NCBI GenBank assembly: GCA_964654165.1 | Contig: CAZZGN010000003.1 | Location: forward strand, 1-34,327 | Source: an uncultured Methanosarcinales archaeon | GTDB lineage: Archaea; Nanobdellota; Nanobdellia; Woesearchaeales; CAZZGN01 | Direction: 5' to 3' | Length of the DNA: 34,327 nucleotides | Part shown: piece by piece, positions 4,211-33,542 of the stretch | Numbering within the stretch: position 1 is the first letter of the stretch | How the letters are laid out: the number at the start of each line of letters is the position of its first letter | The notes under the pieces: generated by a model | The model's input: only the letters and a program-made list of their open reading frames with translations | Database searches by the model: none | Told to the model about the DNA's origin: nothing | Position numbers and translations under genes: made by a program

Positions 4211-4843
4211 TCACTGTTTTATAGAAAGTGTTGAAGGTGACTTCCTTCCAACAGGCGGAACATCTTTTACTTCAAAGCCTACCCTCTTCATATTCTTTCT
4301 AACAAATTTTGCACAAGAATATGTTGTTAATATGCCAGATTTCTTTAATAATTTATATTCTTCTTTGAAAAAATCCTCTGTCCAAAATTCTGGCATCTTT
4401 TTTGTTGAGAATGGATCGTGGAATATGAAATCGAATTTTTCTTTTAGGTTTTTTATTGTTTTTACTGCATCTCCAAGAATTAATTTGATTTTAATATTAT
4501 CTTTCTCATATTCATGGTTTTTTGCAACTTCCTTTATTATTTCATATGAATCAAAATCTGCATTTATTTCTAAAATTTTATTTAAAATTTCTTTATCCAA
4601 TTCTAAAGCTATTATTTCAATTTCGCAATTCTTCAATTCATCTATTGCAGCTGCAGAATTATAACCTAAGCCAAAACAAACATCAAGAATCCTTATTTTA
4701 CCTTTTATTTCATAATTTTCTAGAGATGGAAGGATGAATTTCTTCAATGCTTCTTCCTTAGCTCCTGATACAGAATGATATGTTTCATCAAATTCTTTAT
4801 TATGGAAAGTGATTGATGAGTCTTTTGTTATGATTTTTCTCAT
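4211..4843 (-). CDS. Stand-alone MnmC-type (MnmD-like) SAM-dependent tRNA wobble-U methyltransferase domain
   Basis: TKDSSITF....FDETYHS..GA..EA, ILDVCFGLGYN, FHDPFS..KMPEFWT, LTTYS. Confidence 0.85.
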   Translation of the reverse strand: MRKIITKDSSITFHNKEFDETYHSVSGAKEEALKKFILPSLENYEIKGKIRILDVCFGLGYNSAAAIDELKNCEIEIIALELDKEILNKILEINADFDSYEIIKEVAKNHEYEKDNIKIKLILGDAVKTIKNLKEKFDFIFHDPFSTKKMPEFWTEDFFKEEYKLLKKSGILTTYSCAKFVRKNMKRVGFEVKDVPPVGRKSPSTLSIKQ

Positions 4844-6339
4844 TTATCTACTTGAGTGAGAATTACCTTTTTATGTGTTTCTGTTAAAAACTTTTTCCCT
4901 ATATTGTCATATTCTATAGCAATCCCAGTTGAGATAAGATAAGCAGAAGGACCATGTAAAACTTTTATTTTGTGATCAAGATTATGCCAGATTAATTGGT
5001 CATCTAAAGCTTCTGAATATGGCACTGTATCTAATACAACTACCTGATGCAGATTGTGTACCTTAATTAAATCTCTGTGGATGTAAGGGGCCCTCATATG
5101 AGTGTTATCCATCACAACTTTGATATTAAATTCAACACCTTCTGCTGAATGTTCTTCGTTGTATCTAAGTCCTTCTTGATTTCTTATATAAGCATGACCA
5201 TCACCACTCCCTCCTGTGTTGAATTTATCATCTGGTAATATTACATAAATATCAGCTTTCTTTATTCCCCTTTTTACAAGGTCATCTAGATGCTTGTCGA
5301 GAGATTCTGCCTTACCTCCCGTGGCACTTCCTTCATCATTTCTAAATTTGAATTCGAGTGGTTCTAGGAATCTTAGACCATTTCTTTCGGCAAATCTTTT
5401 TGAACTGTGATAAGCACCTTCATCTACACAATCTACAAAAAATTCCTTATGGATACCTGGTTCTGATTCTTTCAATCCGTTTAAATGTTTATCAAATGGA
5501 AGGAGAAGATCAAAATCAATGTTATTTCTCGGAATATTAAGTTTGTTTGTTAAATAGTCTATCATATCATATTCCATTCCATTAATTTTTATGAGTCCTT
5601 CTTGCGGATTAATACTTGTAAAATTTAAGAAAGATTCTTTTGTAAGTTCAGGCATCTCTTTTCTAGCATGTTCGTGTAAATAGATTAAAGAATGTGCACC
5701 TGCAATAGAGAAATCTTGAATAACCTGTTTTAAAACATGTGTCTCCCACAGACCTTTTTCGTGAAGTGCTTTCTCATGATTATGATTCCATTCATATGAT
5801 GATTTTCTCGTAGCATAACATATATGTGCAGCCCCAGCATCATTAAAGAATTCTATCATACTTCTTGCCTTTCTTAGTTGTCTATCTGGGAGATTTTCAG
5901 CTATGATCATTTGTGAACCTGTTTTTGATTCAAAATCAGGAGTAACGAGAGGTTTTAGTTCATTTAACAATGTATACATTTGATCAAGAACACCATTTAA
6001 AGTTTCTCTTTCAAATCTACTTCTAAGTCTTGCAATATTTCTTTCCCATTCTTTTGCGTTTATGAGTAGTGTACGATATAAATTCTGAGCATAACTATCA
6101 TATATACGGGTATCTTGTGTTAAATAGACTATTTTTCCTTTGTAATCCCCACCCAAAACTTCTTTTGCTGGTCTGGATACTCTATTTTCATTATCTAAGT
6201 AGAGTTTTCTCATGTCTGCAAGATTTGGAGGCATTATAACTTTAAATCCGAAATTTTTTTCTAAATGATTCCTTACTACATGGCTAAAAAGTGTAGAAGT
6301 TTTGCCCCATCCAGCTACAACTATCTCTTTTTCTTTCAA
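4840..6339 (-). CDS. Highly divergent ribose-phosphate pyrophosphokinase (PRPP synthetase/Prs)-like protein with large insertions
   Basis: Colinear Prs-like motifs: LDNENRV (~FSDGEVSV), YKGKIVYLTQDT, DAGAAHI, AGAHSLIYLHEHA (~VLTVDLHA), CVDEGAYHSSKRFA (~SPDIGGVVRARAIA), KFR, ILPDDKFNTGGS (~LVDDMIDTGGT), NTH, QVVVLDTVP (~EVVVCDTIP). TTG start with SD-like GGAGTGA. Confidence 0.72.
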   Translation of the reverse strand: MKEKEIVVAGWGKTSTLFSHVVRNHLEKNFGFKVIMPPNLADMRKLYLDNENRVSRPAKEVLGGDYKGKIVYLTQDTRIYDSYAQNLYRTLLINAKEWERNIARLRSRFERETLNGVLDQMYTLLNELKPLVTPDFESKTGSQMIIAENLPDRQLRKARSMIEFFNDAGAAHICYATRKSSYEWNHNHEKALHEKGLWETHVLKQVIQDFSIAGAHSLIYLHEHARKEMPELTKESFLNFTSINPQEGLIKINGMEYDMIDYLTNKLNIPRNNIDFDLLLPFDKHLNGLKESEPGIHKEFFVDCVDEGAYHSSKRFAERNGLRFLEPLEFKFRNDEGSATGGKAESLDKHLDDLVKRGIKKADIYVILPDDKFNTGGSGDGHAYIRNQEGLRYNEEHSAEGVEFNIKVVMDNTHMRAPYIHRDLIKVHNLHQVVVLDTVPYSEALDDQLIWHNLDHKIKVLHGPSAYLISTGIAIEYDNIGKKFLTETHKKVILTQVDK

Positions 6340-6402
6340 TGCTCACTCCCCCAATGTCATAATCTACTTGAAAGTGATACTTATTTATAAAATTTACGGG
6401 AA

Positions 6403-7950
6403 TTAATAGTCTTTTAGGTTAATCTGCCCCTTTCTCTTATTCTCTTTTACAACAGCCACTTTTTCACCAACTTGTCTTTTAACGTCAGCTGCTAATTTTT
6501 TGCCTAGAATTTGATTTAATGTTGAAATGTCAACTTTTTTAACATCGGAGACTTCCTTTATCTTATTTCTGAATAAAGATCTAGCACGAACTCTTCCAAT
6601 GTTCTTGAATTTCAATAATGGCAGTAATTCTTCTTTTACGCCATATTTCAGCCTTACTCTTAATTTTCTAAACTCAGAAATTAAACTATGTTGCTTTTTT
6701 ATTCTGCAGATTTCTTCTGAAGCATATAATAACCAATCAGCTATGTTTAATTTGGCCTTAATTTCTCCTGGACGTATATTGAATTTTTCTAATAAGTTCT
6801 CTTCGTCTATTTCGTTTGTCCATTCTTTCATAAACAAAGCTGTTTTAATTGAATTCATATATTCTTGATACTCAAAATCATACATTGTTGGTTCTAGATC
6901 TATCAAACAATGATCAAATTCTAATAAAGCTTCTTCGACATATTCCATGTCTGCATTTCTTGTTGACAATAAAGGACGCATCTCCAAAGTATGGCTAATC
7001 ATTTGTAAGAAAGAAAAATCTTCAACTTTCTTTGCTTTTGTTCTTTCTGTGCATTCCATTATGTAATTTGCCGTTAGTGGGTCGAGGTATAATTCAGTTA
7101 CCCTTTTTCCCATTGTTGTTGATTTATATTTGATTGTTCCATATTCTTCTGCTGATAAAAAACCATCATTTGTATCACTACTTTCAATAAACTTCCATTC
7201 TTCTAATTGATGAAGCATTTTTTCGATTATGAATTTTAATTTTTCCATATCTTCAAATTGAAATGCCCAAAATGTTTTTGAGAAAAAATCAAAAATTTTA
7301 TCTTTAGCATTTAGGTATTTTGATGAGATTAAACTTAATAAGTACGTTCTCAGAACTGGTTCAACAGCAAGTTTTGAAAAAATTTCTTCTGGTTCTCCGT
7401 TTATGTAACGTTCTTCTATTTCTTCTGCTTCACTTTCTGTACTTGCTACAGAAATTGCTTCTCCTTCTTTGTCATATTTTGGCCGACCTGCACGACCAGT
7501 CATTTGCATATATTCTAAGACTGGAATAAACTGCATTCCTCTGTGGCCAAAACGTCTTAAATCTTTCATGATTACTCTGAAAGCTGGTAAGTCTAATCCA
7601 GCTGCTAAAGTTGGCGTGGCAGCAATGACTTTTATATTTCCCGTTCTGAAATTATCTTCAATTAATTCTCTTTGTTTTGATGTTAAACCTGAATGATGAA
7701 AAGCTATGCCTTTTTTTATGCAATTGCCAAGCCTAATGCATTGTTTTGTTGGTTTTGATAAGACTTTTAGAATTTCCTCTGAAAGATTTATTAATTCTAT
7801 ATTCTTTATTTTTTTGGCTATATCTTCCGCAGTTTTTTCTGCTCCACGTTTTGTATTTGCGAATATGATTGCTTGTTTTTTCTTTTGTATTGTGTCCAAA
7901 GCTAGAGAAATTGTGCTGTTGTTATGATTGTCAATTTGAAAGCCTTTCAT
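6403..7950 (-). CDS. hel308: Hel308/Hjm helicase C-terminal portion (RecA2, winged helix, ratchet, HhH); lacks the RecA1 ATPase domain
   Basis: IIFANTKRGAE (IV), GIAFHHSGL, ATPTLAAGLDLPA (V), QMTGRAGRPKYD (VI), LYLDP, RLKYGVKEELLPL, IGRVRARSL. No Walker A, DExH or SAT anywhere in the ORF. Confidence 0.85.
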   Translation of the reverse strand: MKGFQIDNHNNSTISLALDTIQKKKQAIIFANTKRGAEKTAEDIAKKIKNIELINLSEEILKVLSKPTKQCIRLGNCIKKGIAFHHSGLTSKQRELIEDNFRTGNIKVIAATPTLAAGLDLPAFRVIMKDLRRFGHRGMQFIPVLEYMQMTGRAGRPKYDKEGEAISVASTESEAEEIEERYINGEPEEIFSKLAVEPVLRTYLLSLISSKYLNAKDKIFDFFSKTFWAFQFEDMEKLKFIIEKMLHQLEEWKFIESSDTNDGFLSAEEYGTIKYKSTTMGKRVTELYLDPLTANYIMECTERTKAKKVEDFSFLQMISHTLEMRPLLSTRNADMEYVEEALLEFDHCLIDLEPTMYDFEYQEYMNSIKTALFMKEWTNEIDEENLLEKFNIRPGEIKAKLNIADWLLYASEEICRIKKQHSLISEFRKLRVRLKYGVKEELLPLLKFKNIGRVRARSLFRNKIKEVSDVKKVDISTLNQILGKKLAADVKRQVGEKVAVVKENKRKGQINLKDY

Positions 7951-25840: not shown

Positions 25841-26089
25841 ATGGAGCAAAATTTCAACAAGGATGTAAGTTGTGTGATCAATACATGCAAACAGTGTTAT
25901 GATAGTATAAGAATGCCTGCATACATGCACGAAATCATACTAAAGCAAGAAAGTTTGCCATATTTGAAAAGAACCATCACAGGAAACCAGGACACTAGAT
26001 TAGGAAGTTTTTTTGTTAGCAAGTGCAATTTAATCTTTTGCAATGATAATTGCTTCCATATTTCACAGAAGATTAAACTTTCAAGCTAA
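25841..26089 (+). CDS. Hypothetical Cys-rich small protein (~82 aa)
   Basis: SD-like GGGGGAG before ATG 25841; CVINTCKQC...CNLIFCNDNC; 3' end overlaps the smc stop region. Confidence 0.45.
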   Translation: MEQNFNKDVSCVINTCKQCYDSIRMPAYMHEIILKQESLPYLKRTITGNQDTRLGSFFVSKCNLIFCNDNCFHISQKIKLSS

Positions 26090-29000
26090 CTATCTTGCTC
26101 ATGCCGTGTTCGTTCATACTGACACCATATAATGTGTCGGCTTCTGCAATTACCCCATCATTATGAGAAATAATTAAGTATTGGGCTCTTTCTGCGTATT
26201 TTTTTATTAAAGCAGCAAGTTTTTCAGCGTTTCTTTTGTCTAATGCTGCATCGACTTCATCAAGTATGTAGAAAGAAGCAGGGTCGTGCTCTTGTATGGA
26301 AAAAATGAATGCTAATGCGGTTAATGTCTTTTCTCCACCTGATAATGATCTTATGTCCAGGAATTTCTTTCCCGTAATTCTTACTTTAATCAGTACACCC
26401 TCAGCAAGAGGATCTTCAGAATTTTCAATTTCTAAATAAGCGTCGCCTTTTGTAGATAATTGCTGGAATATACTCTTGAAATTTTGATTTGCAATTTCAA
26501 ATGCTTTAATGAAAAGATCTTTCTTTTTTGATTCAATTTCATTCATCATCATAATTACATCTTCTTTTTCTAATCTTAACATGTCCTTTTTCTCATTTAA
26601 GTTGTTGTATTCTTTTTCTACAATATCATATATCTCAAGAGCTTTCATATTAACATTGCCGATAGAAGCCAATGCAATGTCATAACGTCTTATATTCTCC
26701 CTTAGATTATCTTTGTTTTTATTTGCTAGAAGTTCTGTTTTTTCATATTGTTTGTATTCTTCTTCTAATGCTGCAAGTTCAGCTTTGAATCTTGCAGTCT
26801 CAACAGAATATGAGTTTGATTTTATTTCAATCTCTCTCAATTGCTTATCTTTTACTATTTCTTTTTCTTCAAACTTTCTTATGTTATCGCTAATTTCATT
26901 TCTTTTTCCAAATAATCCTTTGAATTGCTTTCTGAATTCATTTTCTTTGACTTCTTTTATCTTGAGTTCTTCATTCTGTTTTTTTATCGTGTCTTTTAAA
27001 AGTCTTATTTCTTCATTGAAATCTGCTTCTTCTTTGTCATGCTGTTTTAATATCTTTAAGGTATTGTATTTTTCTGGTTCGAGAATTGTTTTAATTTGGA
27101 TGTCGATGTTTTTTGCTTCGCCTTCAAATTTCATTATATCTTCTTTAAGTTCATCTTTCTTTTGCTCGAATGCATTTAGTTCAGCAAGTTTTCTTGGATT
27201 TCTAAGTTCTCCAATTTGATCCCTTAATTTTTGCTTTTCTGTCTTGATTTTTGCCAGGTCTTGGTTAATTAAGCTGATTTTGTTTTGCATTTCTGTTAAT
27301 TCTTTATCTATTTGTGTGAGTTCTTTTATGAAATCTTCTTTAACTTGAACAGATGCTTTCACGTCATCAGAATCTAGATGAAGGCTTTTTTCTTTCTTAA
27401 TTATTTCTCCTTCTAAGTTTGCTTTCTTCTCTCTTAATTCTGTTATTTCATCTTCATTATTTTTTCTGTTATTTTCGACGTTTGTTAGAAGTTTTTGATA
27501 ATCAGCTTCTTGTTTTTCCAATTCCTTCGTTTCTGCCATTAGTTCGTCTTCTTTAAAACTGAATGTTGTTTTTTTTCTGAAACCACCGTGCATCGCCCCG
27601 CTTGTTTCAACTAAATCTCCAGTTAGTGACGACATTCTAACTGTACCCACTCCAATTCTTCTTGCTGTATCTATACTGTCTACGATTAATGTTCTTCCGA
27701 AAACATAAGAAAATATTTTATTGAATTTTGGATCGTAAGTTATCAAATCCGAAGCCAACCCATGTACACCGTTAGCTTTCATAAGTTTTTTTAGTTCTTC
27801 TGATTGTGTTGAGAATTTAATTTTATTTAGTGGGAGGAATGTTGCTGTTCCTAATTTGTTTTGTTTTAGATATTTTATACAGTCTGCTGCAACTTTATCA
27901 TCTTCAACGACGATGCTTTTTATTCTTGGACCAGCTGCAGTTTCTAATGCTTGAGAATATTTACTTTTTACACTTCCCAAATCATATACTGTCCCGTAAA
28001 CTTTTCCGAATTTAGACTTGTTTTCAAGAATTTTTTGTGTTGCAATGTCCCCGGCTGCTACTTGTCTCGCGGCGTTTGTCTTTGCGTTTATGGCTGCAAG
28101 ATTTTCTCTAATTTTCTCTAATTTTGTTCTTGCTGTTGTTGATTGTGCTGTGATGGATTGATTTTCGTCTAAGGATTTGCTTAATTTTAATGTAGTTGTT
28201 TTTAATTCTTCTCTGTCTTTTTTCAATTGATCAATTTCATGCTTGTATTCTTTTTCGAGTTCTTTGACTTTTATTATTTTATCATCTATAGATTGTATTT
28301 GAAATTCTATACGATCTTTATTTCTCATAAATTCCTGCTGTTGTTCTCTAAGTTTATGAATGTCTATTTGTTTTTTGTCAATATCTTTGTCTAAGCTGTC
28401 GATGTTTTTTTCTATGTCTCCTGCGTTATCTAATTGATTGTCAGACCTATATTGTTTTATTTTATCTTCGATTTGCTTTAATTGTTGTTTTTTGTCTTTT
28501 ACAGCTTTTGACAGTTCTTCTTTTTCTTTTTCAGAGTTTCTTATTTTTGTGTTTATATCTTCCAGATTTTTATTTAATTGATCTTTTCTTTGTGTTAATC
28601 TGGTTATTTCATTTTCGCACGAACCGATTCTTGTTTTGTTTGTCGAAACATCTACTTTTAATTGTTCTACTTCTTTATGGATTGTTACTTGTTCTTTTTC
28701 ACCCTGATTTTCGATGTCGTCATTTATTTTTCTCTCTTCTTCTTTTAGATTTTTTATTTTTTTATTTAGTTCGTCAATTTCTTTTTGGAGTTTGGAGACT
28801 TTGTTTCCATATCCTTCCATATTTTCGTTTACTTTTTTTATTTGGGATTCTTTTTCAAGAATTTGCGTGTTTAATAAAGTGGCTTTGCTTCTTGTCAACT
28901 TTGTTCGCAGATCTTTGTACTTTAGTGCTTGATCCCTTTCTGTTTTTAATTCATCTAAATGACCTTTTCTTTCTATTAAAATGATATCAGCTTCATTGAG

Positions 29001-29564
29001 TTTTTGCTCGACTCTGTTTAATTCGTTTTCCGCTTTTTTCTTTTTTTCTTCGTAAATTGAGATTCCGGAAATTTCTTCAATTATTTTTCTTCTTTCATCT
29101 GGGGGCATTTCTACAAATTTAACTATATCTCCCTGAAGAATTATATTGTAGCCGTCAGGATTTATTCTGGCTATGCTTAATAAATCTAAAATCTGTTGTT
29201 TTGTTCTTACTTTGTCGTTTATTTTGTAGACAGATTGACCTGTTTGTTTTACTATCCTTGTTATTTTGACTTCTTTTTCATCAGTTGGGAATGTCTTGTC
29301 ATTGTTATCAAAGTAGATTGATACTTCTCCCTGCTTTGAAGGAGGTTTTGCTTTTCCGCCGTTGTAGATAAGATTTGCGGCTTTTTCAGCTCTCATGCCT
29401 TTTGCTGAACCTTTTCCTAATACAAAAGATAAAGCGTCCATTACATTAGATTTCCCACTTCCATTTGGACCTAACACACAATTAAACTTCTCTCCGAGAA
29501 CTAATTCAGTCTTAGTTGCAAAAGACTTAAATCCGCTCATGACTATATTATTGATACGTGTCAT
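26073..29564 (-). CDS. smc: Chromosome segregation protein SMC
   Basis: GFKSF, Walker A GPNGSGKSN, Q-loop ILQG, hinge (G.ATFLPL; G.MHGG), coiled coils, LSGGEK, ILDEVDAALD, ISH. Confidence 0.97.
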   Translation of the reverse strand: MTRINNIVMSGFKSFATKTELVLGEKFNCVLGPNGSGKSNVMDALSFVLGKGSAKGMRAEKAANLIYNGGKAKPPSKQGEVSIYFDNNDKTFPTDEKEVKITRIVKQTGQSVYKINDKVRTKQQILDLLSIARINPDGYNIILQGDIVKFVEMPPDERRKIIEEISGISIYEEKKKKAENELNRVEQKLNEADIILIERKGHLDELKTERDQALKYKDLRTKLTRSKATLLNTQILEKESQIKKVNENMEGYGNKVSKLQKEIDELNKKIKNLKEEERKINDDIENQGEKEQVTIHKEVEQLKVDVSTNKTRIGSCENEITRLTQRKDQLNKNLEDINTKIRNSEKEKEELSKAVKDKKQQLKQIEDKIKQYRSDNQLDNAGDIEKNIDSLDKDIDKKQIDIHKLREQQQEFMRNKDRIEFQIQSIDDKIIKVKELEKEYKHEIDQLKKDREELKTTTLKLSKSLDENQSITAQSTTARTKLEKIRENLAAINAKTNAARQVAAGDIATQKILENKSKFGKVYGTVYDLGSVKSKYSQALETAAGPRIKSIVVEDDKVAADCIKYLKQNKLGTATFLPLNKIKFSTQSEELKKLMKANGVHGLASDLITYDPKFNKIFSYVFGRTLIVDSIDTARRIGVGTVRMSSLTGDLVETSGAMHGGFRKKTTFSFKEDELMAETKELEKQEADYQKLLTNVENNRKNNEDEITELREKKANLEGEIIKKEKSLHLDSDDVKASVQVKEDFIKELTQIDKELTEMQNKISLINQDLAKIKTEKQKLRDQIGELRNPRKLAELNAFEQKKDELKEDIMKFEGEAKNIDIQIKTILEPEKYNTLKILKQHDKEEADFNEEIRLLKDTIKKQNEELKIKEVKENEFRKQFKGLFGKRNEISDNIRKFEEKEIVKDKQLREIEIKSNSYSVETARFKAELAALEEEYKQYEKTELLANKNKDNLRENIRRYDIALASIGNVNMKALEIYDIVEKEYNNLNEKKDMLRLEKEDVIMMMNEIESKKKDLFIKAFEIANQNFKSIFQQLSTKGDAYLEIENSEDPLAEGVLIKVRITGKKFLDIRSLSGGEKTLTALAFIFSIQEHDPASFYILDEVDAALDKRNAEKLAALIKKYAERAQYLIISHNDGVIAEADTLYGVSMNEHGMSKIVSLKV

Positions 29565-29602: not shown

Positions 29603-32600
29603 TTATGAGAGTATTTCGATTGGCTTGAAAGTGTAATTATCGCCGCAAAATTCTGAGGTGCAGCATGCTTGATACGTATCGTCTATTTCTTCTATACATC
29701 CAGAATCATTTACAAAAGTAGCTGGATCTTCATCAAGTTTCGTATTACATTCAGTTGTATTTGTGGGAGAATAACATCCACAAGGAATATCATCATAAAT
29801 GCATCGAAAGAATTCATCACATGAATCTACTGTGCAAGGTTCATTGTCATCACAAGTGTGAGGTCCATATACACAGATATTATCAACGCATTCCCAAGTT
29901 TCGCAAAATAAATCACGATCGCAATCATCGTCTATTAGGCAGCCGTCATAATTACAATTACTTGTGTCTATTTCACAGTTTTTATCACATACAAGCCACC
30001 CACCTAAAAATCCTTCAAAATCCCTACAGTCAACATCTCCATCTCCATCATCATCCCAATCTCCAACATTGTATCCATCAGCATCACATTCAGAGTCGCA
30101 AGCATCTACACTACATATTCTTTCAGGGCAATTGTCACCTATGATAGAAACGCATGTTCCGAAATTTAACTGGTAGAAATAGCCCTTCTCCTTCTTAGGT
30201 TTTTTCTTTTTAGAGTCTGAGCAGTCTGGTTCTTTACACCATTCACAGCTTTTATCCTTTTTACAGTCCTTTTCTTTTGTATAGTCATTACAATTTTCAC
30301 GAAGAACATGAATTTCATTTGTTATGTTGTCGCCTATTTGGATACAACCATCATTTATATAAGTGAATAAGTCTACAGTTGGGTTTTTTGTGCATGATTT
30401 TGCGATAGTTGAAGTATTAACTGTGCATGAGAAATTTCCTTTATTTCCGTTCCAGTTCCCTCCCCAATTGCAAGTGTTTTCGTCTAATGTGACCTTTAAG
30501 CAAGTGTGACCTATAATACTAACAGTTGAATTAACTTCGATAATAGTTGTGTTTGTTGTACAATCTACACTAGTTAAATCTAAAATTTCAACAGCGCAGT
30601 CATCGTCATCCCAGTCAATTAAACCATCTAAATCATCATCCTCGCCGTTTGTGCATATTTCTACTCCTGGTATTGGATCACAATTCATACCAATAGGACT
30701 GGCTGGTTGATATCCAGTATCACATTTGCAAGTAACCTCATTACATCCAGTTCCCCAAGCTACTCCATTATATTCACATTCTTCAGAGGTGTAAATTTCG
30801 CCATCACCACATTCATTACATCCTTCAGATTCATATTGAGGTGTTGATGGACCATAAACATAATATGGGGTAAAGCATGGATCATCATCCCATAAGCAAG
30901 TGTCTGAACAGTTTCTATTATATGAGATGTAATCTCTGAATGTTCTTGTTACACCACTTCCATAACAACCATCAATTCCTCCTTCAGGGCAAGTATTAGA
31001 AGAAGAACCATCGCAAGTATCAGAGCATTGTATAACAGAACAAACATAAGTTATCACTGTGCTAATATCAACACACCTATCAATACCCCCACTATACATT
31101 GGAGAGGAACCTTGACATTTAGTAACCCATTTACAAAGCCCATCCCCTGCACATGTTCCTATACCTCTTGCTGAACATAAACTTGGATTTACAGTTAGGA
31201 ATTCTGACTTAGGAGTTCCAATTTGATAAGAACGATCATCTGGTTCTGTAGCAGAACTGTATACATCACATACAATATTATCACTTTCTGTAAACACTCT
31301 ATTTCTAAAAGTTACTTGAGAAAATCCAACATTCCAAGAATCTCCTACTTGCCAACCTAAATCTAAATCACCAGCACTATAAACACCATTATTATCGTTA
31401 TCAATGAAAGTATAAATGCTATTATAACCAGCATCATTATCATTTACTGTACAAGTAATGTCAATAGAATCACCAGAAGTAATTGGATTTCCACTTAAAG
31501 TTATAGCAATTATTTCAACTCCACAATCATTATCACCGTGGAATGTATCTGAGCTATCCCAATTTGTATCTCCGTCACAATCTTCATCGATTGTTCCAAA
31601 AGTACAAACTTCTGAATCTGGTGTGCATGAAGAAGGTTCACCAACACAAGTATAACATATTTCTTGGGCACAACTATCTGAACAACCATCGTTATTGTTT
31701 GTATTTCCGTCGTCGCATCCTTCACCAATTTCTACAATGCCATTTCCACAGACAGGGATTAATTCACAATTCAATCCTGCAGGGATTGTCGGTTGATAAC
31801 CAGTATCACATTCGCAAGTCCAATCGTCTGTACATCCAGTTCCCCAAGTTAGTCCATTGTCTGGTGATTCGCATTCTTCTATTCCTGTTACAATTGAATC
31901 ACCACAACTACTAACTGTATCTCTACACCAGCAATTGCTTGCTGAAAAACAAAAGTAATATTCGCTTGCAGTTATACAACAACCGAGGTTCCCATAAGTA
32001 ACATCTAACATTGGAGATCTTGTATAATCTGTATCATCACATGTACATTCTCCAGGATTTCCAGAACCTATACAATTCAAATTCCCATCACATTCTTCTG
32101 GAGCTTCAATAATTAAGTTTCCACAATTGCTTCCTCCACTAGTTTCACAACAAATATCTTCATCATAACCTACTGTTCCACATTGAGCGACATGAGAATT
32201 TGTTGAATATTTTAAAGCTATGACGCACTTTTCTGTTGCACCACAACTTGCGCTTGTTGTGCAAGTTACACCTGTACTATCTGCACCCAAACATACTTCT
32301 TCGGTATATGTACCATCTGGGTTCGTTGTATCTGCTGCATGAGAATTACTAGTTTGGTATAAGTAAAATGCAACTTGACTACCTGTACAGGCAGAAGATT
32401 GACCTAAATCTGTCCCAGGACAGCATATCTTTTGTGGTCCTAATGTTGAGTCTTGAGAAACATGAGTATTTTCAGCGCTATTTACAGAAGCAATTGCAGT
32501 ATCAGTAGTACAATCTGCACTAATATAACAATTGTCTGTCAAGCTTAGAGCAAAAACACTAGTGGATAACAATATAATCGTTATAATAAAAATGAAAGCC

Positions 32601-32605
32601 CTCAT
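29603..32605 (-). CDS. Large secreted Cys-rich surface protein (Myxococcus-type Cys-rich repeats, DxDxDG Ca-binding motifs)
   Basis: Signal peptide; three N-terminal N(S/T)H repeats; CGNGIVEIGEGCDDGNTNNNDGCSDSC; EICTNGEDDDLDGLIDWDDDDC; CDDNEPCTVDSC. Confidence 0.88.
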   Translation of the reverse strand: MRAFIFIITIILLSTSVFALSLTDNCYISADCTTDTAIASVNSAENTHVSQDSTLGPQKICCPGTDLGQSSACTGSQVAFYLYQTSNSHAADTTNPDGTYTEEVCLGADSTGVTCTTSASCGATEKCVIALKYSTNSHVAQCGTVGYDEDICCETSGGSNCGNLIIEAPEECDGNLNCIGSGNPGECTCDDTDYTRSPMLDVTYGNLGCCITASEYYFCFSASNCWCRDTVSSCGDSIVTGIEECESPDNGLTWGTGCTDDWTCECDTGYQPTIPAGLNCELIPVCGNGIVEIGEGCDDGNTNNNDGCSDSCAQEICYTCVGEPSSCTPDSEVCTFGTIDEDCDGDTNWDSSDTFHGDNDCGVEIIAITLSGNPITSGDSIDITCTVNDNDAGYNSIYTFIDNDNNGVYSAGDLDLGWQVGDSWNVGFSQVTFRNRVFTESDNIVCDVYSSATEPDDRSYQIGTPKSEFLTVNPSLCSARGIGTCAGDGLCKWVTKCQGSSPMYSGGIDRCVDISTVITYVCSVIQCSDTCDGSSSNTCPEGGIDGCYGSGVTRTFRDYISYNRNCSDTCLWDDDPCFTPYYVYGPSTPQYESEGCNECGDGEIYTSEECEYNGVAWGTGCNEVTCKCDTGYQPASPIGMNCDPIPGVEICTNGEDDDLDGLIDWDDDDCAVEILDLTSVDCTTNTTIIEVNSTVSIIGHTCLKVTLDENTCNWGGNWNGNKGNFSCTVNTSTIAKSCTKNPTVDLFTYINDGCIQIGDNITNEIHVLRENCNDYTKEKDCKKDKSCEWCKEPDCSDSKKKKPKKEKGYFYQLNFGTCVSIIGDNCPERICSVDACDSECDADGYNVGDWDDDGDGDVDCRDFEGFLGGWLVCDKNCEIDTSNCNYDGCLIDDDCDRDLFCETWECVDNICVYGPHTCDDNEPCTVDSCDEFFRCIYDDIPCGCYSPTNTTECNTKLDEDPATFVNDSGCIEEIDDTYQACCTSEFCGDNYTFKPIEILS

Positions 32606-32798: not shown

Positions 32799-33542
32799 AT
32801 GGGTTTACTTAACAAAATTAAGAATTTCTATCATTATAATAAAGCAATTGTTAAAATAAGTACTTTAGCTACGATTTTGACTGGTATTGGGGTATTACTT
32901 TCAAACGATACTCAAGCTCAAGATTATTCTCCGACTGCTATAAGTGAAGACGAAGCAAAACATATTGACACTATTGTGGCTCAGAATTATGAGCTCAACC
33001 CAGTAGATTTTCATACTACTCAAACAGTATATACAACAGCTGGAAATAGATGGGATATTCCAATGGCAGTTACAACTTCGAATGATACAGTAGCTGGTGG
33101 AGACTTTAGTGGTTATGCATGGGTCCATAATACAACACCCGATCAAAGGACAGTTCTTAGAGATAGTCTGCCTAATACCTGTATAGATATTTTAGATTTA
33201 AATGATTACACACCTGAAGAATATCAAGAAGCAGCAGAAAATCATTGGGATGGGTGCGGGTATTTTCCAACAGCAATAAATCCTTTTACTGAACCTACAT
33301 CAACATTAAATGTCCAGGCATATCCAAATCCATTTACGAATGGTTTTACTATTAAACCAAACGAGGATATATCAAGAATTGTAATGTATAATCAGCTTGG
33401 ACAAGAAATATATAGAAATAATTCAGAAGTGAAAGCAGATAAAACACTAACAATTAATCAGGAATTGTCAAATGGTGTTTACATAATGAAATTGATAAAC
33501 GATAAAAATGAAGTTGTAACAAAAAAATTGGTGAAACAATGA
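32799..33542 (+). CDS. Secreted protein with a T9SS type A-like C-terminal sorting domain
   Basis: C-terminal AYPNPFT..F.I......I.MYNQLGQEI...L.NGVYIMKL.......TKKLVKQ; signal peptide ending TQA-Q. Confidence 0.82.
   Translation: MGLLNKIKNFYHYNKAIVKISTLATILTGIGVLLSNDTQAQDYSPTAISEDEAKHIDTIVAQNYELNPVDFHTTQTVYTTAGNRWDIPMAVTTSNDTVAGGDFSGYAWVHNTTPDQRTVLRDSLPNTCIDILDLNDYTPEEYQEAAENHWDGCGYFPTAINPFTEPTSTLNVQAYPNPFTNGFTIKPNEDISRIVMYNQLGQEIYRNNSEVKADKTLTINQELSNGVYIMKLINDKNEVVTKKLVKQ

Follow-up and report, generated by a model that had tools for sequence, protein, structure and literature searches.

The window, that is, the whole 34,327-nt stretch of DNA analysed here (contig CAZZGN010000003.1, positions 1 to 34,327 of the forward strand, GenBank assembly GCA_964654165.1), comes from an uncultured Methanosarcinales archaeon placed by GTDB in the Woesearchaeales (Nanobdellota). 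It contains, on its minus strand, an open reading frame (ORF) of 499 amino acids (aa) that is related to phosphoribosyl pyrophosphate (PRPP) synthetase (Prs) and is called here, together with its homologues, the X family. PRPP is the activated sugar needed for nucleotides, and central metabolism has few enzymes as conserved as PRPP synthetase (ribose-phosphate diphosphokinase, EC 2.7.6.1), whose ATP-site residues are treated as diagnostic. A previous reading, made from the sequence alone, described the ORF as a remodelled homologue of this enzyme coupled to a tRNA-modification methyltransferase; profile and structure searches bear out the homology, and the genomic data speak against the coupling. 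Since the sugar-binding and catalytic parts of the protein appear to be kept and its nucleotide pocket appears to be rebuilt, X probably carries out chemistry related to PRPP synthesis with a changed partner molecule.

The gene and its recognition by family models

The gene and the features that adjoin it are as follows:

4840..6339, minus strand: Prs-fold ORF of 499 aa (X family), TTG start
6340..6402, minus strand: upstream spacer of 63 nt, with the A/T-rich TTTTATAAATA at 6392-6382 and GGGGGAGTGA at 6352-6343
4211..4843, minus strand: MnmC2-like S-adenosylmethionine (SAM) methyltransferase, 210 aa (Methyltransf_30, E 1.9e-30)
6403..7950, minus strand: C-terminal half of Hel308 (RecA2, winged helix, domain 4, helix-hairpin-helix), 515 aa (Helicase_dom4_arc, E 7e-31)

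The ORF stands as first described, with 499 aa on the minus strand and a TTG start, which lies right after an in-frame TGA and the purine-rich GGGGGAGTGA and coincides with the position at which the N-termini of the homologues fall. Judged by the consensus sequences, TTTTATAAATA may be an archaeal TATA box and GGGGGAGTGA a Shine-Dalgarno site. The TGA stop (4842-4840) overlaps the ATG (4843-4841) of the 210-aa MnmC2-like ORF, so the ATGA stop/start overlap reported at 4843-4840 is present, and the motifs quoted for the protein were located at residues 182-188 (YEWNHNH), 222-224 (HEH), 331-333 (KFR), and 370-378 (DDKFNTGGS).

Taken as a single sequence, the 499-aa protein matched no Pfam family and no Prs model of NCBIfam at E<=1, no PDB chain at E<=10 in a phmmer search, and nothing in the PADLOC and PHROGs scans, and the ESM Atlas search returned sub-threshold leads only (scores <=0.76). 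The homologues are hardly more visible. PF13793 is touched by one of the 25 members of the family alignment described below (E 0.018) and PF00156 by seven (best 1.8e-4), and the family falls under the curated cut-offs of PF13793, PF14572, and TIGR01251, all of them Prs family models. The database names of the homologues are all “hypothetical protein”, with no precomputed Pfam domain among them.

The family is also rare. A word-indexed search of 5.8 billion proteins gave five matches, the query included, and HMMER, run exhaustively over 1.84 billion cluster representatives, gave 26 at E<=1e-3, eight of them at E<=1e-30; a second profile search added no further X member. Five public genome records hold an X member, their titles naming four Nanoarchaeota metagenome-assembled genomes (MAGs) and one Methanosarcinales MAG. 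Among 401 sampled genomes of the phylum, strong matches occur in four, namely G000 (the window's own genome, with an assembly completeness of 82.6%), G290, G399, and G247. The 60 nearer relatives of G000 contain no X-family gene, and a scan of metagenome contigs gave one further X locus, resembling L035. X is a distinct, rare clade that is missed by standard family models and that is found, so far, almost only in DPANN Nanoarchaeota MAGs. The possibility that the gene is a decaying orphan is contradicted by its homologues: the rewritten residues are kept across the 25-member alignment and therefore X is not such an orphan.

In the literature searched, no account of the X clade was found, and the clade, its fixed Trp/His substitutions, and the sister family F2 introduced below appear to be undescribed there, although the Prs fold and its capacity for repurposing are already known. 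The portion of PMC13252144 that was available describes an archaeal class XII and a heterogeneous DPANN/CPR region of PRPP synthetase (PRPS) sequence space; X members are possibly inside that classification, and the heterogeneous region might include the X clade.

Fold, active-site residues, and predicted dimer

The relationship with Prs rests on profiles and on a structural model. Alignment A2 comprises the 25 longest X members (P0026-P0030, of 92-318 aa, were left out), whose identity to the query is 22-55% and which share 18 invariant columns. Searched against the PDB, its profile gave 27 sequences at E<=10, of which 26 are ribose-phosphate pyrophosphokinases (best 5.5e-5). Profile–profile comparison with alignment A3, made of eight canonical Prs of the same archaeal order, gave hhalign probabilities of 99.4-99.8% and E values from 1e-21 to 4e-27 over 272-309 columns, which supports the collinear order of Prs-like motifs claimed from the sequence. 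The AlphaFold (AF2) model built from A2 has a predicted local distance difference test score (pLDDT) of 91.3 and a predicted TM-score (pTM) of 0.91. Its best Foldseek matches are all PRPP synthetases (E ~2e-12, target TM 0.70-0.77). Prs and the PRPS-associated proteins PAP39/41 fill the first 38 places in VIA-align (Z 22.9-27.5, ~270-300 residues aligned), led by human PRPS2 (Z 27.5, root-mean-square deviation 2.8 Å, 299 residues, model range 4-480), and the entry after this block is a single-domain phosphoribosyltransferase (PRTase) with Z 9.3. In VIA-align the match extends over whole Prs chains, and both structural comparisons reveal two tandem type-I PRTase-like domains in the Prs arrangement, so the full two-domain fold of a remote PRPP-synthetase homologue is present.

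The protein is ~180 aa longer than canonical Prs (499 aa, compared with 288-320 aa for the canonical enzymes of the same order), owing to one helical insertion of ~70 aa and several smaller ones. The large insertion, which the sequence-only reading placed after the first beta-strands, spans residues ~79-150 and contains the invariant D81 and P151. The model shows two long helices in it (83-103 and 108-132), and three of the 25 members lack it, where A2 has gaps. The elements of the predicted active site and the insertion lie at the following positions:

6187..6201, minus strand: Y47-L-D49-N-E51 loop, corresponding to the canonical F-x-D-x-E loop lent by the neighbouring subunit
5890..6105, minus strand: family-specific insertion of ~70 aa (residues ~79-150), with no canonical Prs counterpart in hhalign
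5776..5796, minus strand: Y182-E-W-N-H-N-H188, the rewritten RQD / regulatory-flexible-loop region
5665..5676, minus strand: H222-E-H224-A225, counterpart of canonical D-L-H-(S/A)
5413..5424, minus strand: D306-E-G-A, counterpart of (S)PD-x-G, aligned to the canonical invariant D170
5329..5349, minus strand: K331-F-R333-N-D-E336-G337 catalytic hairpin, aligned to the canonical invariants K193 and R195
5206..5232, minus strand: D370-D-K-F-N374-T-G-G-S378, the ribose-5-phosphate/pyrophosphate loop, aligned to DD-x-x-D-T-G-G-T
5092..5103, minus strand: T413-H414-M-R416, with the canonical T-H kept and a new Arg

Residue counts refer to the 25 members of A2, with the hhalign register and the invariants of the eight canonical Prs as reference. 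In canonical Prs, the nucleotide is held by residues of two subunits. The excerpt of PMC6332680 on E. coli Prs has the purine stacked between F35 and R96, which belong to different chains, with Q97, D98, and H131 touching ribose and phosphate, D37 and E39 contributed by the neighbouring chain, and D224-K231 binding the 5-phosphate.

On the side of the acceptor and of catalysis, little is changed in X. D306 is found in 25/25 members and G308 in 24/25. The hairpin has K331 in 22, R333 and E336 in all, and G337 in 23. D370 and D371 (25/25), T/S375 (24/25), and T378 (23/25) are maintained in the ribose-5-phosphate loop, the third Asp of which has become N374 in every member. H414, aligned to the canonical invariant H249, is likewise present in 25/25, as is R416, which has no canonical counterpart; D81, P151, E183, and E336 are the other invariant residues lacking one. 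The loop that would be lent to the neighbouring subunit is also recognisable, since Y47 and E51 align in hhalign with F36 and E40, respectively, of a canonical Prs; D49 and E51 are invariant, and position 47 is Phe in 12 members, Tyr in nine, and His in four.

The RQD region is different. W184 (22/25, Leu in three) replaces the base-stacking invariant Arg of RQD (R97 of the canonical protein at L039), position 185, at the Gln site, is Ser, Asn, or Thr in 24/25, and H186, at the Asp site in an approximate register, is found in 25/25, as is E183. In the DLH strand, the hhalign counterparts of H222 and H224 are D129 and H131 of the L039 protein; H222 (24/25) replaces the Asp, H224 (25/25) is the canonical His, and A225 follows in 23/25. 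The retention of most of the ribose-5-phosphate loop and of the K-x-R hairpin beside a rewritten RQD region was thus read correctly at the outset. The replacement motifs themselves hold in part. In YEWNHNH, E183, W184, and H186 are family-wide and H188 is kept in 8/25 members only; the change of DLH to HEH is real for the Asp, but its last His is the retained canonical one, and most members read H-P-H (Pro in 19/25). Of the “His-rich replacements” on which a new activity had been based, H186 and H222 are fixed, H188 is not conserved, and H224 is not new.

Judged from the alignment, the acceptor and catalytic sides of the site appear intact, and the donor pocket appears rebuilt on its base/ribose side. 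A base could still be sandwiched, by Tyr/Phe and Trp. This would need two subunits, and the prediction of a two-copy complex is consistent with such an assembly. It reached an ipSAE of 0.78 (0.77, 0.78, and 0.80 in the individual runs), compared with 0.00 for the best control; at least 87% of contacts were common to the three runs, and the pLDDT of the partner was at least 84. Of the proteins solved as pairs, 20 of 30 reach the mark used for calling a dimer, and of those solved as single chains, one of 23 does. The predicted interface is formed by the helical hairpin, the loop with Y47, D49, and E51 (45-62), and residues 181-184 and 191-202 of the other chain. R416 also lies within it, and the contacts of lowest error fall inside the insertion (e.g., 98 with 98 and 98 with 117). 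With the predicted arrangement, the two chains together would form the complete nucleotide site, as they do in Prs. The prediction supports self-association of the X protein, short of demonstrating it, and the pass may partly reflect the model's memory because Prs dimers have already been solved.

Prs-type genes, sister family F2, and shared genomic slots

In all three other carriers, a separate canonical prs is found above the TIGR01251 cut-off (396, 242, and 367 bits in G290, G399, and G247), each of these genomes holding one or two such genes, and therefore X is not simply the housekeeping enzyme there. The window's genome is less clear. No canonical prs was found in this 82.6% complete assembly, where the best TIGR01251 match has 38.6 bits against a cut-off of 113, and PurF is present; X, or the second Prs-like gene on contig C207, might therefore be the PRPP synthase of this organism. 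A canonical prs above the cut-off is found in 22 of 40 related genomes and was not found in the other 18. None was found in G009 and G004, single-contig genomes with a completeness rating of 99-100%.

The second gene belongs to a family of its own. Weaker matches of the A2 profile (E 1e-21 to 1e-6) occur in 20 further genomes, and in 16 of these (of 400 sampled), as well as in G000, they correspond to F2, a second non-canonical Prs-like family of ~400-430 aa. The copy in G000 (contig C207, L001:582-1613) is interrupted by a 10-N gap and the contig end. Aligned as A4 (15 members, L016 left out), F2 is the closest profile relative of X (hhalign E 4.9e-36, 361 columns). It reads R-S-H in place of R-Q-D, with the Arg kept and His at the Asp site, and D-P-H in the DLH strand; some members match Pfam Prs models weakly. 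The two families have in common the His at the RQD Asp position, N-P-(Q/F) after the H-x-H/D-P-H strand, and a D-T-V-P motif. Unlike X, F2 has the Arg in RQD and the Asp in D-P-H, and it lacks the long helical hairpin, E183/W184, and N374. A quick tree separates X (31 rows, SH-aLRT 99), F2 (15 rows, 95), and canonical Prs (eight rows, 96).

X and F2 also alternate in two syntenic slots of the genome. The first is defined by the Hel308 C-terminal half, which in the window starts at RecA2 (Helicase_C, E 4e-13) and has no DEAD domain, and orthologues of which adjoin X or F2 genes in L036, L082, L077, and L078. X lies beside it in the window (co-directional, 63-nt gap), in G247 (convergent), and in L036 (1.5 kb away), F2 in G392 (co-directional, 66-nt gap) and in G203 (convergent). 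In G071 (L088), the Hel308 C-half is accompanied by a near-canonical 350-aa Prs and PurA, followed by MnmC2. This Prs (L088:4596-5648), located between the Hel308 C-half and PurA-MnmC2, keeps RQD and has H-G-H in place of D-L-H; it may represent a transitional form of the locus. The second slot, found in GTDB family f12, lies between FtsY-prefoldin and Taw1 (FtsY-prefoldin <-> [gene] -> Taw1); it is occupied by X in G399 and by F2 in G196, which has the same genus label as G399, and in G133, G252, and G228. No single partner gene was found to recur across the six other distinct X-family loci. Because X and F2 occupy slots of Prs-type genes, a single prs-type locus whose occupant diverged or was displaced by distant homologues is suggested, and the slot sharing would also imply that the two families have the same type of role in phosphoribosyl or nucleotide metabolism.

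Two alternatives can be weighed with these data. In the first, X is a very divergent PRPP synthase that performs the canonical reaction of ATP and ribose-5-phosphate. All acceptor-side and catalytic residues appear to be kept, X sits in slots held elsewhere by Prs-type genes (once beside PurA), and G000 has PRPP consumers such as PurF. However, R97, invariant in the eight aligned canonical sequences, is changed family-wide in X, three carriers have a canonical prs as well, and the apparent absence of such a gene from G000 means less in an incomplete assembly when 18/40 relatives lack a detectable one anyway; this explanation is considered very unlikely. In the second, X is a non-catalytic regulatory or scaffolding paralogue (a pseudoenzyme) that modulates canonical Prs, like the eukaryotic PRPS-associated proteins. 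Canonical prs stands alongside X in 3/3 other carriers, ATP-site residues are substituted, PAP39 and PAP41 are among the structural matches (Z 26.6 and 25.6), and the available part of a 2026 preprint counts 37 independent PRPS pseudoenzyme events in eukaryotes (PMC13252144). Against this, the hairpin, metal-binding, and ribose-phosphate residues are invariant at roughly 25% identity, and the replaced positions are fixed to specific new residues, unlike those of a relaxed site. The predicted self-dimer is built partly from X's own insertion, G000 has no detectable canonical partner, and G203 holds F2 with no canonical prs at E<=1e-30. A pseudoenzyme is considered quite unlikely.

The coupling to an MnmC-like methyltransferase or to tRNA modification suggested by the sequence-only reading is not supported by comparison with other genomes. 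The overlap implies co-translation in the window's genome, and Taw1, a tRNA-modification enzyme, lies downstream of X in G399 and of F2 at several loci. However, no MnmC2-like gene lies near any of the six other X-family loci, none of 19 MnmC2 loci of relatives has an X relative (0/19), and the MnmC2-like gene, widespread in the order, is present in 32/60 relatives with no X-family gene among them; the coupling is therefore local to the window's genome. Moreover, G258 has the methyltransferase immediately after the Hel308 C-half and no Prs-like gene in between, three F2 loci have Taw1 in convergent orientation or at a distance, and 4-nt stop/start overlaps are found in seven co-directional gene pairs of the window, some of them seemingly unrelated (e.g., YdjM and CYTH). 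A partnership of X with the downstream methyltransferase in tRNA or RNA modification is highly improbable, and the overlap would represent local operon packing, not a shared pathway. The assignment of the neighbour itself is approximate, its NF033855 (MnmC2) score being 117.1 bits, under the cut-off of 136. No full-length MnmG-type match was found in five genomes, where PF01134 (GIDA) reached 25-26 bits over its first 46-99 positions, and the substrate of the MnmC2-like protein may therefore differ from the bacterial one.

Several observations concern the neighbouring genes in their own right. In G258, the MnmC2-like protein and the Hel308 C-half form one open frame of 769 aa. In G000, Hel308 is apparently split over two loci, the C-terminal half in the window and a 217-aa ORF on contig C60 (L087:534-1187), which matches residues 17-215 of archaeal Hel308/Hjm structures (2zj2_A, E 2.3e-58). 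The C-half orthologues of relatives have 519-526 aa; that of G247 (L082:3549-6656) has 1035 aa, with an insertion, relative to the window's protein, of ~517 aa between residues 116 and 634 that is probably an intein. In L075, a HerA-like gene encodes LAGLIDADG and intein-splicing domains, and one neighbour cluster mixed HerA-like and Hel308 proteins, presumably through a shared intein-like insert. DUF460 (PF04312) flanks the Prs-like gene in L036, L082, and L077, twice X and once F2, forming a DUF460 / Prs-like / Hel308C block. Farther away in the window, a Por_Secre_tail domain (type IX secretion C-terminal sorting domain, E 5e-11) is encoded at 32799-33542 on the plus strand, which is unusual for an archaeal genome, and two very large adjacent minus-strand ORFs of 1163 and 1000 aa (26073-29564 and 29603-32605) fall within a stretch of strong negative AT skew.

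Possible reactions and comparison with known systems

The explanation that we prefer, although tentatively, is that X would be an active dimeric diphosphokinase of Prs type with a rebuilt nucleotide pocket and a 5-phosphoribosyl acceptor. In such an enzyme, Y47 of one chain and W184 of the other would sandwich a base, and a diphosphoryl (or phosphoryl) group would be transferred from the nucleotide to the C1 hydroxyl of a 5-phosphoribosyl-type acceptor, with donor specificity, metal use, or regulation unlike those of canonical Prs. The gene would descend from, or have displaced, a prs-type gene at a conserved locus, where it would be interchangeable with F2. A number of points weigh against this proposal. 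The residues replaced in X, equivalents of R96, Q97, and D98, contact ATP in canonical Prs, and nucleotide binding could be lost instead of changed. The register just past W184 is ambiguous, with an hhalign gap opening there, and the putative closeness of H186, H222, H224, and E183 follows from the alignment. K331 is absent in 3/25 members, no canonical prs was found in G000, and the tree is the product of a quick search only, with L010 and L027 kept as ungrouped long branches.

The same residues allow a bolder interpretation, that E183, W184, H186, H222, and H224 form a new metal- or base-binding site for a reaction undescribed for the Prs fold, for example diphosphorylation with a non-ATP donor or of a phosphoribosyl acceptor other than ribose-5-phosphate. 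This is doubtful but conceivable. If it were true, X and F2 would define a DPANN-specific branch of phosphoribosyl metabolism that is invisible to standard annotation and that sits repeatedly beside a split Hel308 repair helicase.

A further alternative is that the fold now serves another acceptor or reaction, on the pattern of the phage enzyme Adps, an ADP-ribose pyrophosphate (ADPR-PP) synthetase of the NARP1 system. Candidate acceptors would be larger phosphoribosyl compounds (ADP-ribose, a nucleotide, or ribose-1,5-bisphosphate), and other options would be a reaction of PRTase or hydrolase type or chemistry that relies on a new His/Glu metal site. Non-canonical residues within active-site elements (E183, H186, E336, N374, and R416 in 25/25, H222 in 24/25) fit this idea, as does the canonical prs retained by three other carriers, which argues against redundancy. 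Adps switched its acceptor with the DD, H, and D residues kept, and X member P0009 (E 1e-6) and the F2 of L009 (2e-18) match the phage model phrog_619 better than the Pfam models of Prs. On the other side, NAMPT/Namat (PF04095) was found neither in the five X or F2 genomes searched nor among the scanned neighbours, while 97% of Adps genes have a Namat (NAMPT-family) neighbour according to the available part of a preprint. No X relative was found in IMG/VR contigs or in 50,697 phage records, where F2 has one weak match (23% identity) in an unannotated phage record, and Adps keeps the Arg that is Trp in X. Fused forms naming a partner were not found among longer proteins, which is weak evidence, and RuBisCO is less frequent in X or F2 genomes (4/20, the tally including unpublished genome G322) than overall (130/401), with 0/42 in family f12. 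Repurposing of this kind is regarded as unlikely. A link to the pathway of RuBisCO, AMP, and ribose-1,5-bisphosphate is not supported by the co-occurrence, and an Adps-like reconstitution of NAD was rejected, given the missing Namat and viral relatives and the change of Arg to Trp. PADLOC gave no match that would link X to a defence system.

Part of the significance of X lies in annotation. Since Pfam and NCBIfam are almost blind to X and F2 and prs was not found in 18/40 related genomes, DPANN reconstructions that score “no PRPP synthase” may overlook candidate enzymes such as these.

Compared with canonical Prs (class I and archaeal class III), X has the same two-domain fold, collinear motifs, and a predicted dimer mediated by the N-domain, and it keeps T-H as well as the elements that bind ribose-5-phosphate, metal, and the transferred diphosphate in Prs, namely the D/E loop, the DLH His, the SPD Asp, K-x-R, DD, and T-G-G-T. 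It differs in the change of Arg to Trp, Gln to Ser/Asn, and Asp to His in RQD and DLH, in the third Asp of the ribose-phosphate loop, which is Asn, and in the new invariant residues E183, E336, R416, and D81; in addition, it lies under every curated threshold and coexists with canonical prs in three other genomes. PAP39 and PAP41 (Z 25.6-26.6) resemble X as longer Prs paralogues with insertions that occur beside an active Prs, but the X family, a deep one, has invariant catalytic and ribose-phosphate residues, and X is predicted to pair with itself. The closest parallel in kind is Adps, a Prs-fold enzyme with a changed substrate in which, in the available part of PMC13586617, the H, D, and DD residues are kept and the hairpin Lys (K185) is essential. 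Adps retains the Arg (R87) and the third Asp (D216) where X has Trp and Asn, and it is phage-borne, whereas X has neither viral relatives nor a Namat neighbour. Adps is nevertheless a precedent that a rebuilt nucleotide site on the Prs fold can change the reaction, and X, alongside it, can be seen as a natural experiment in re-specifying this fold.

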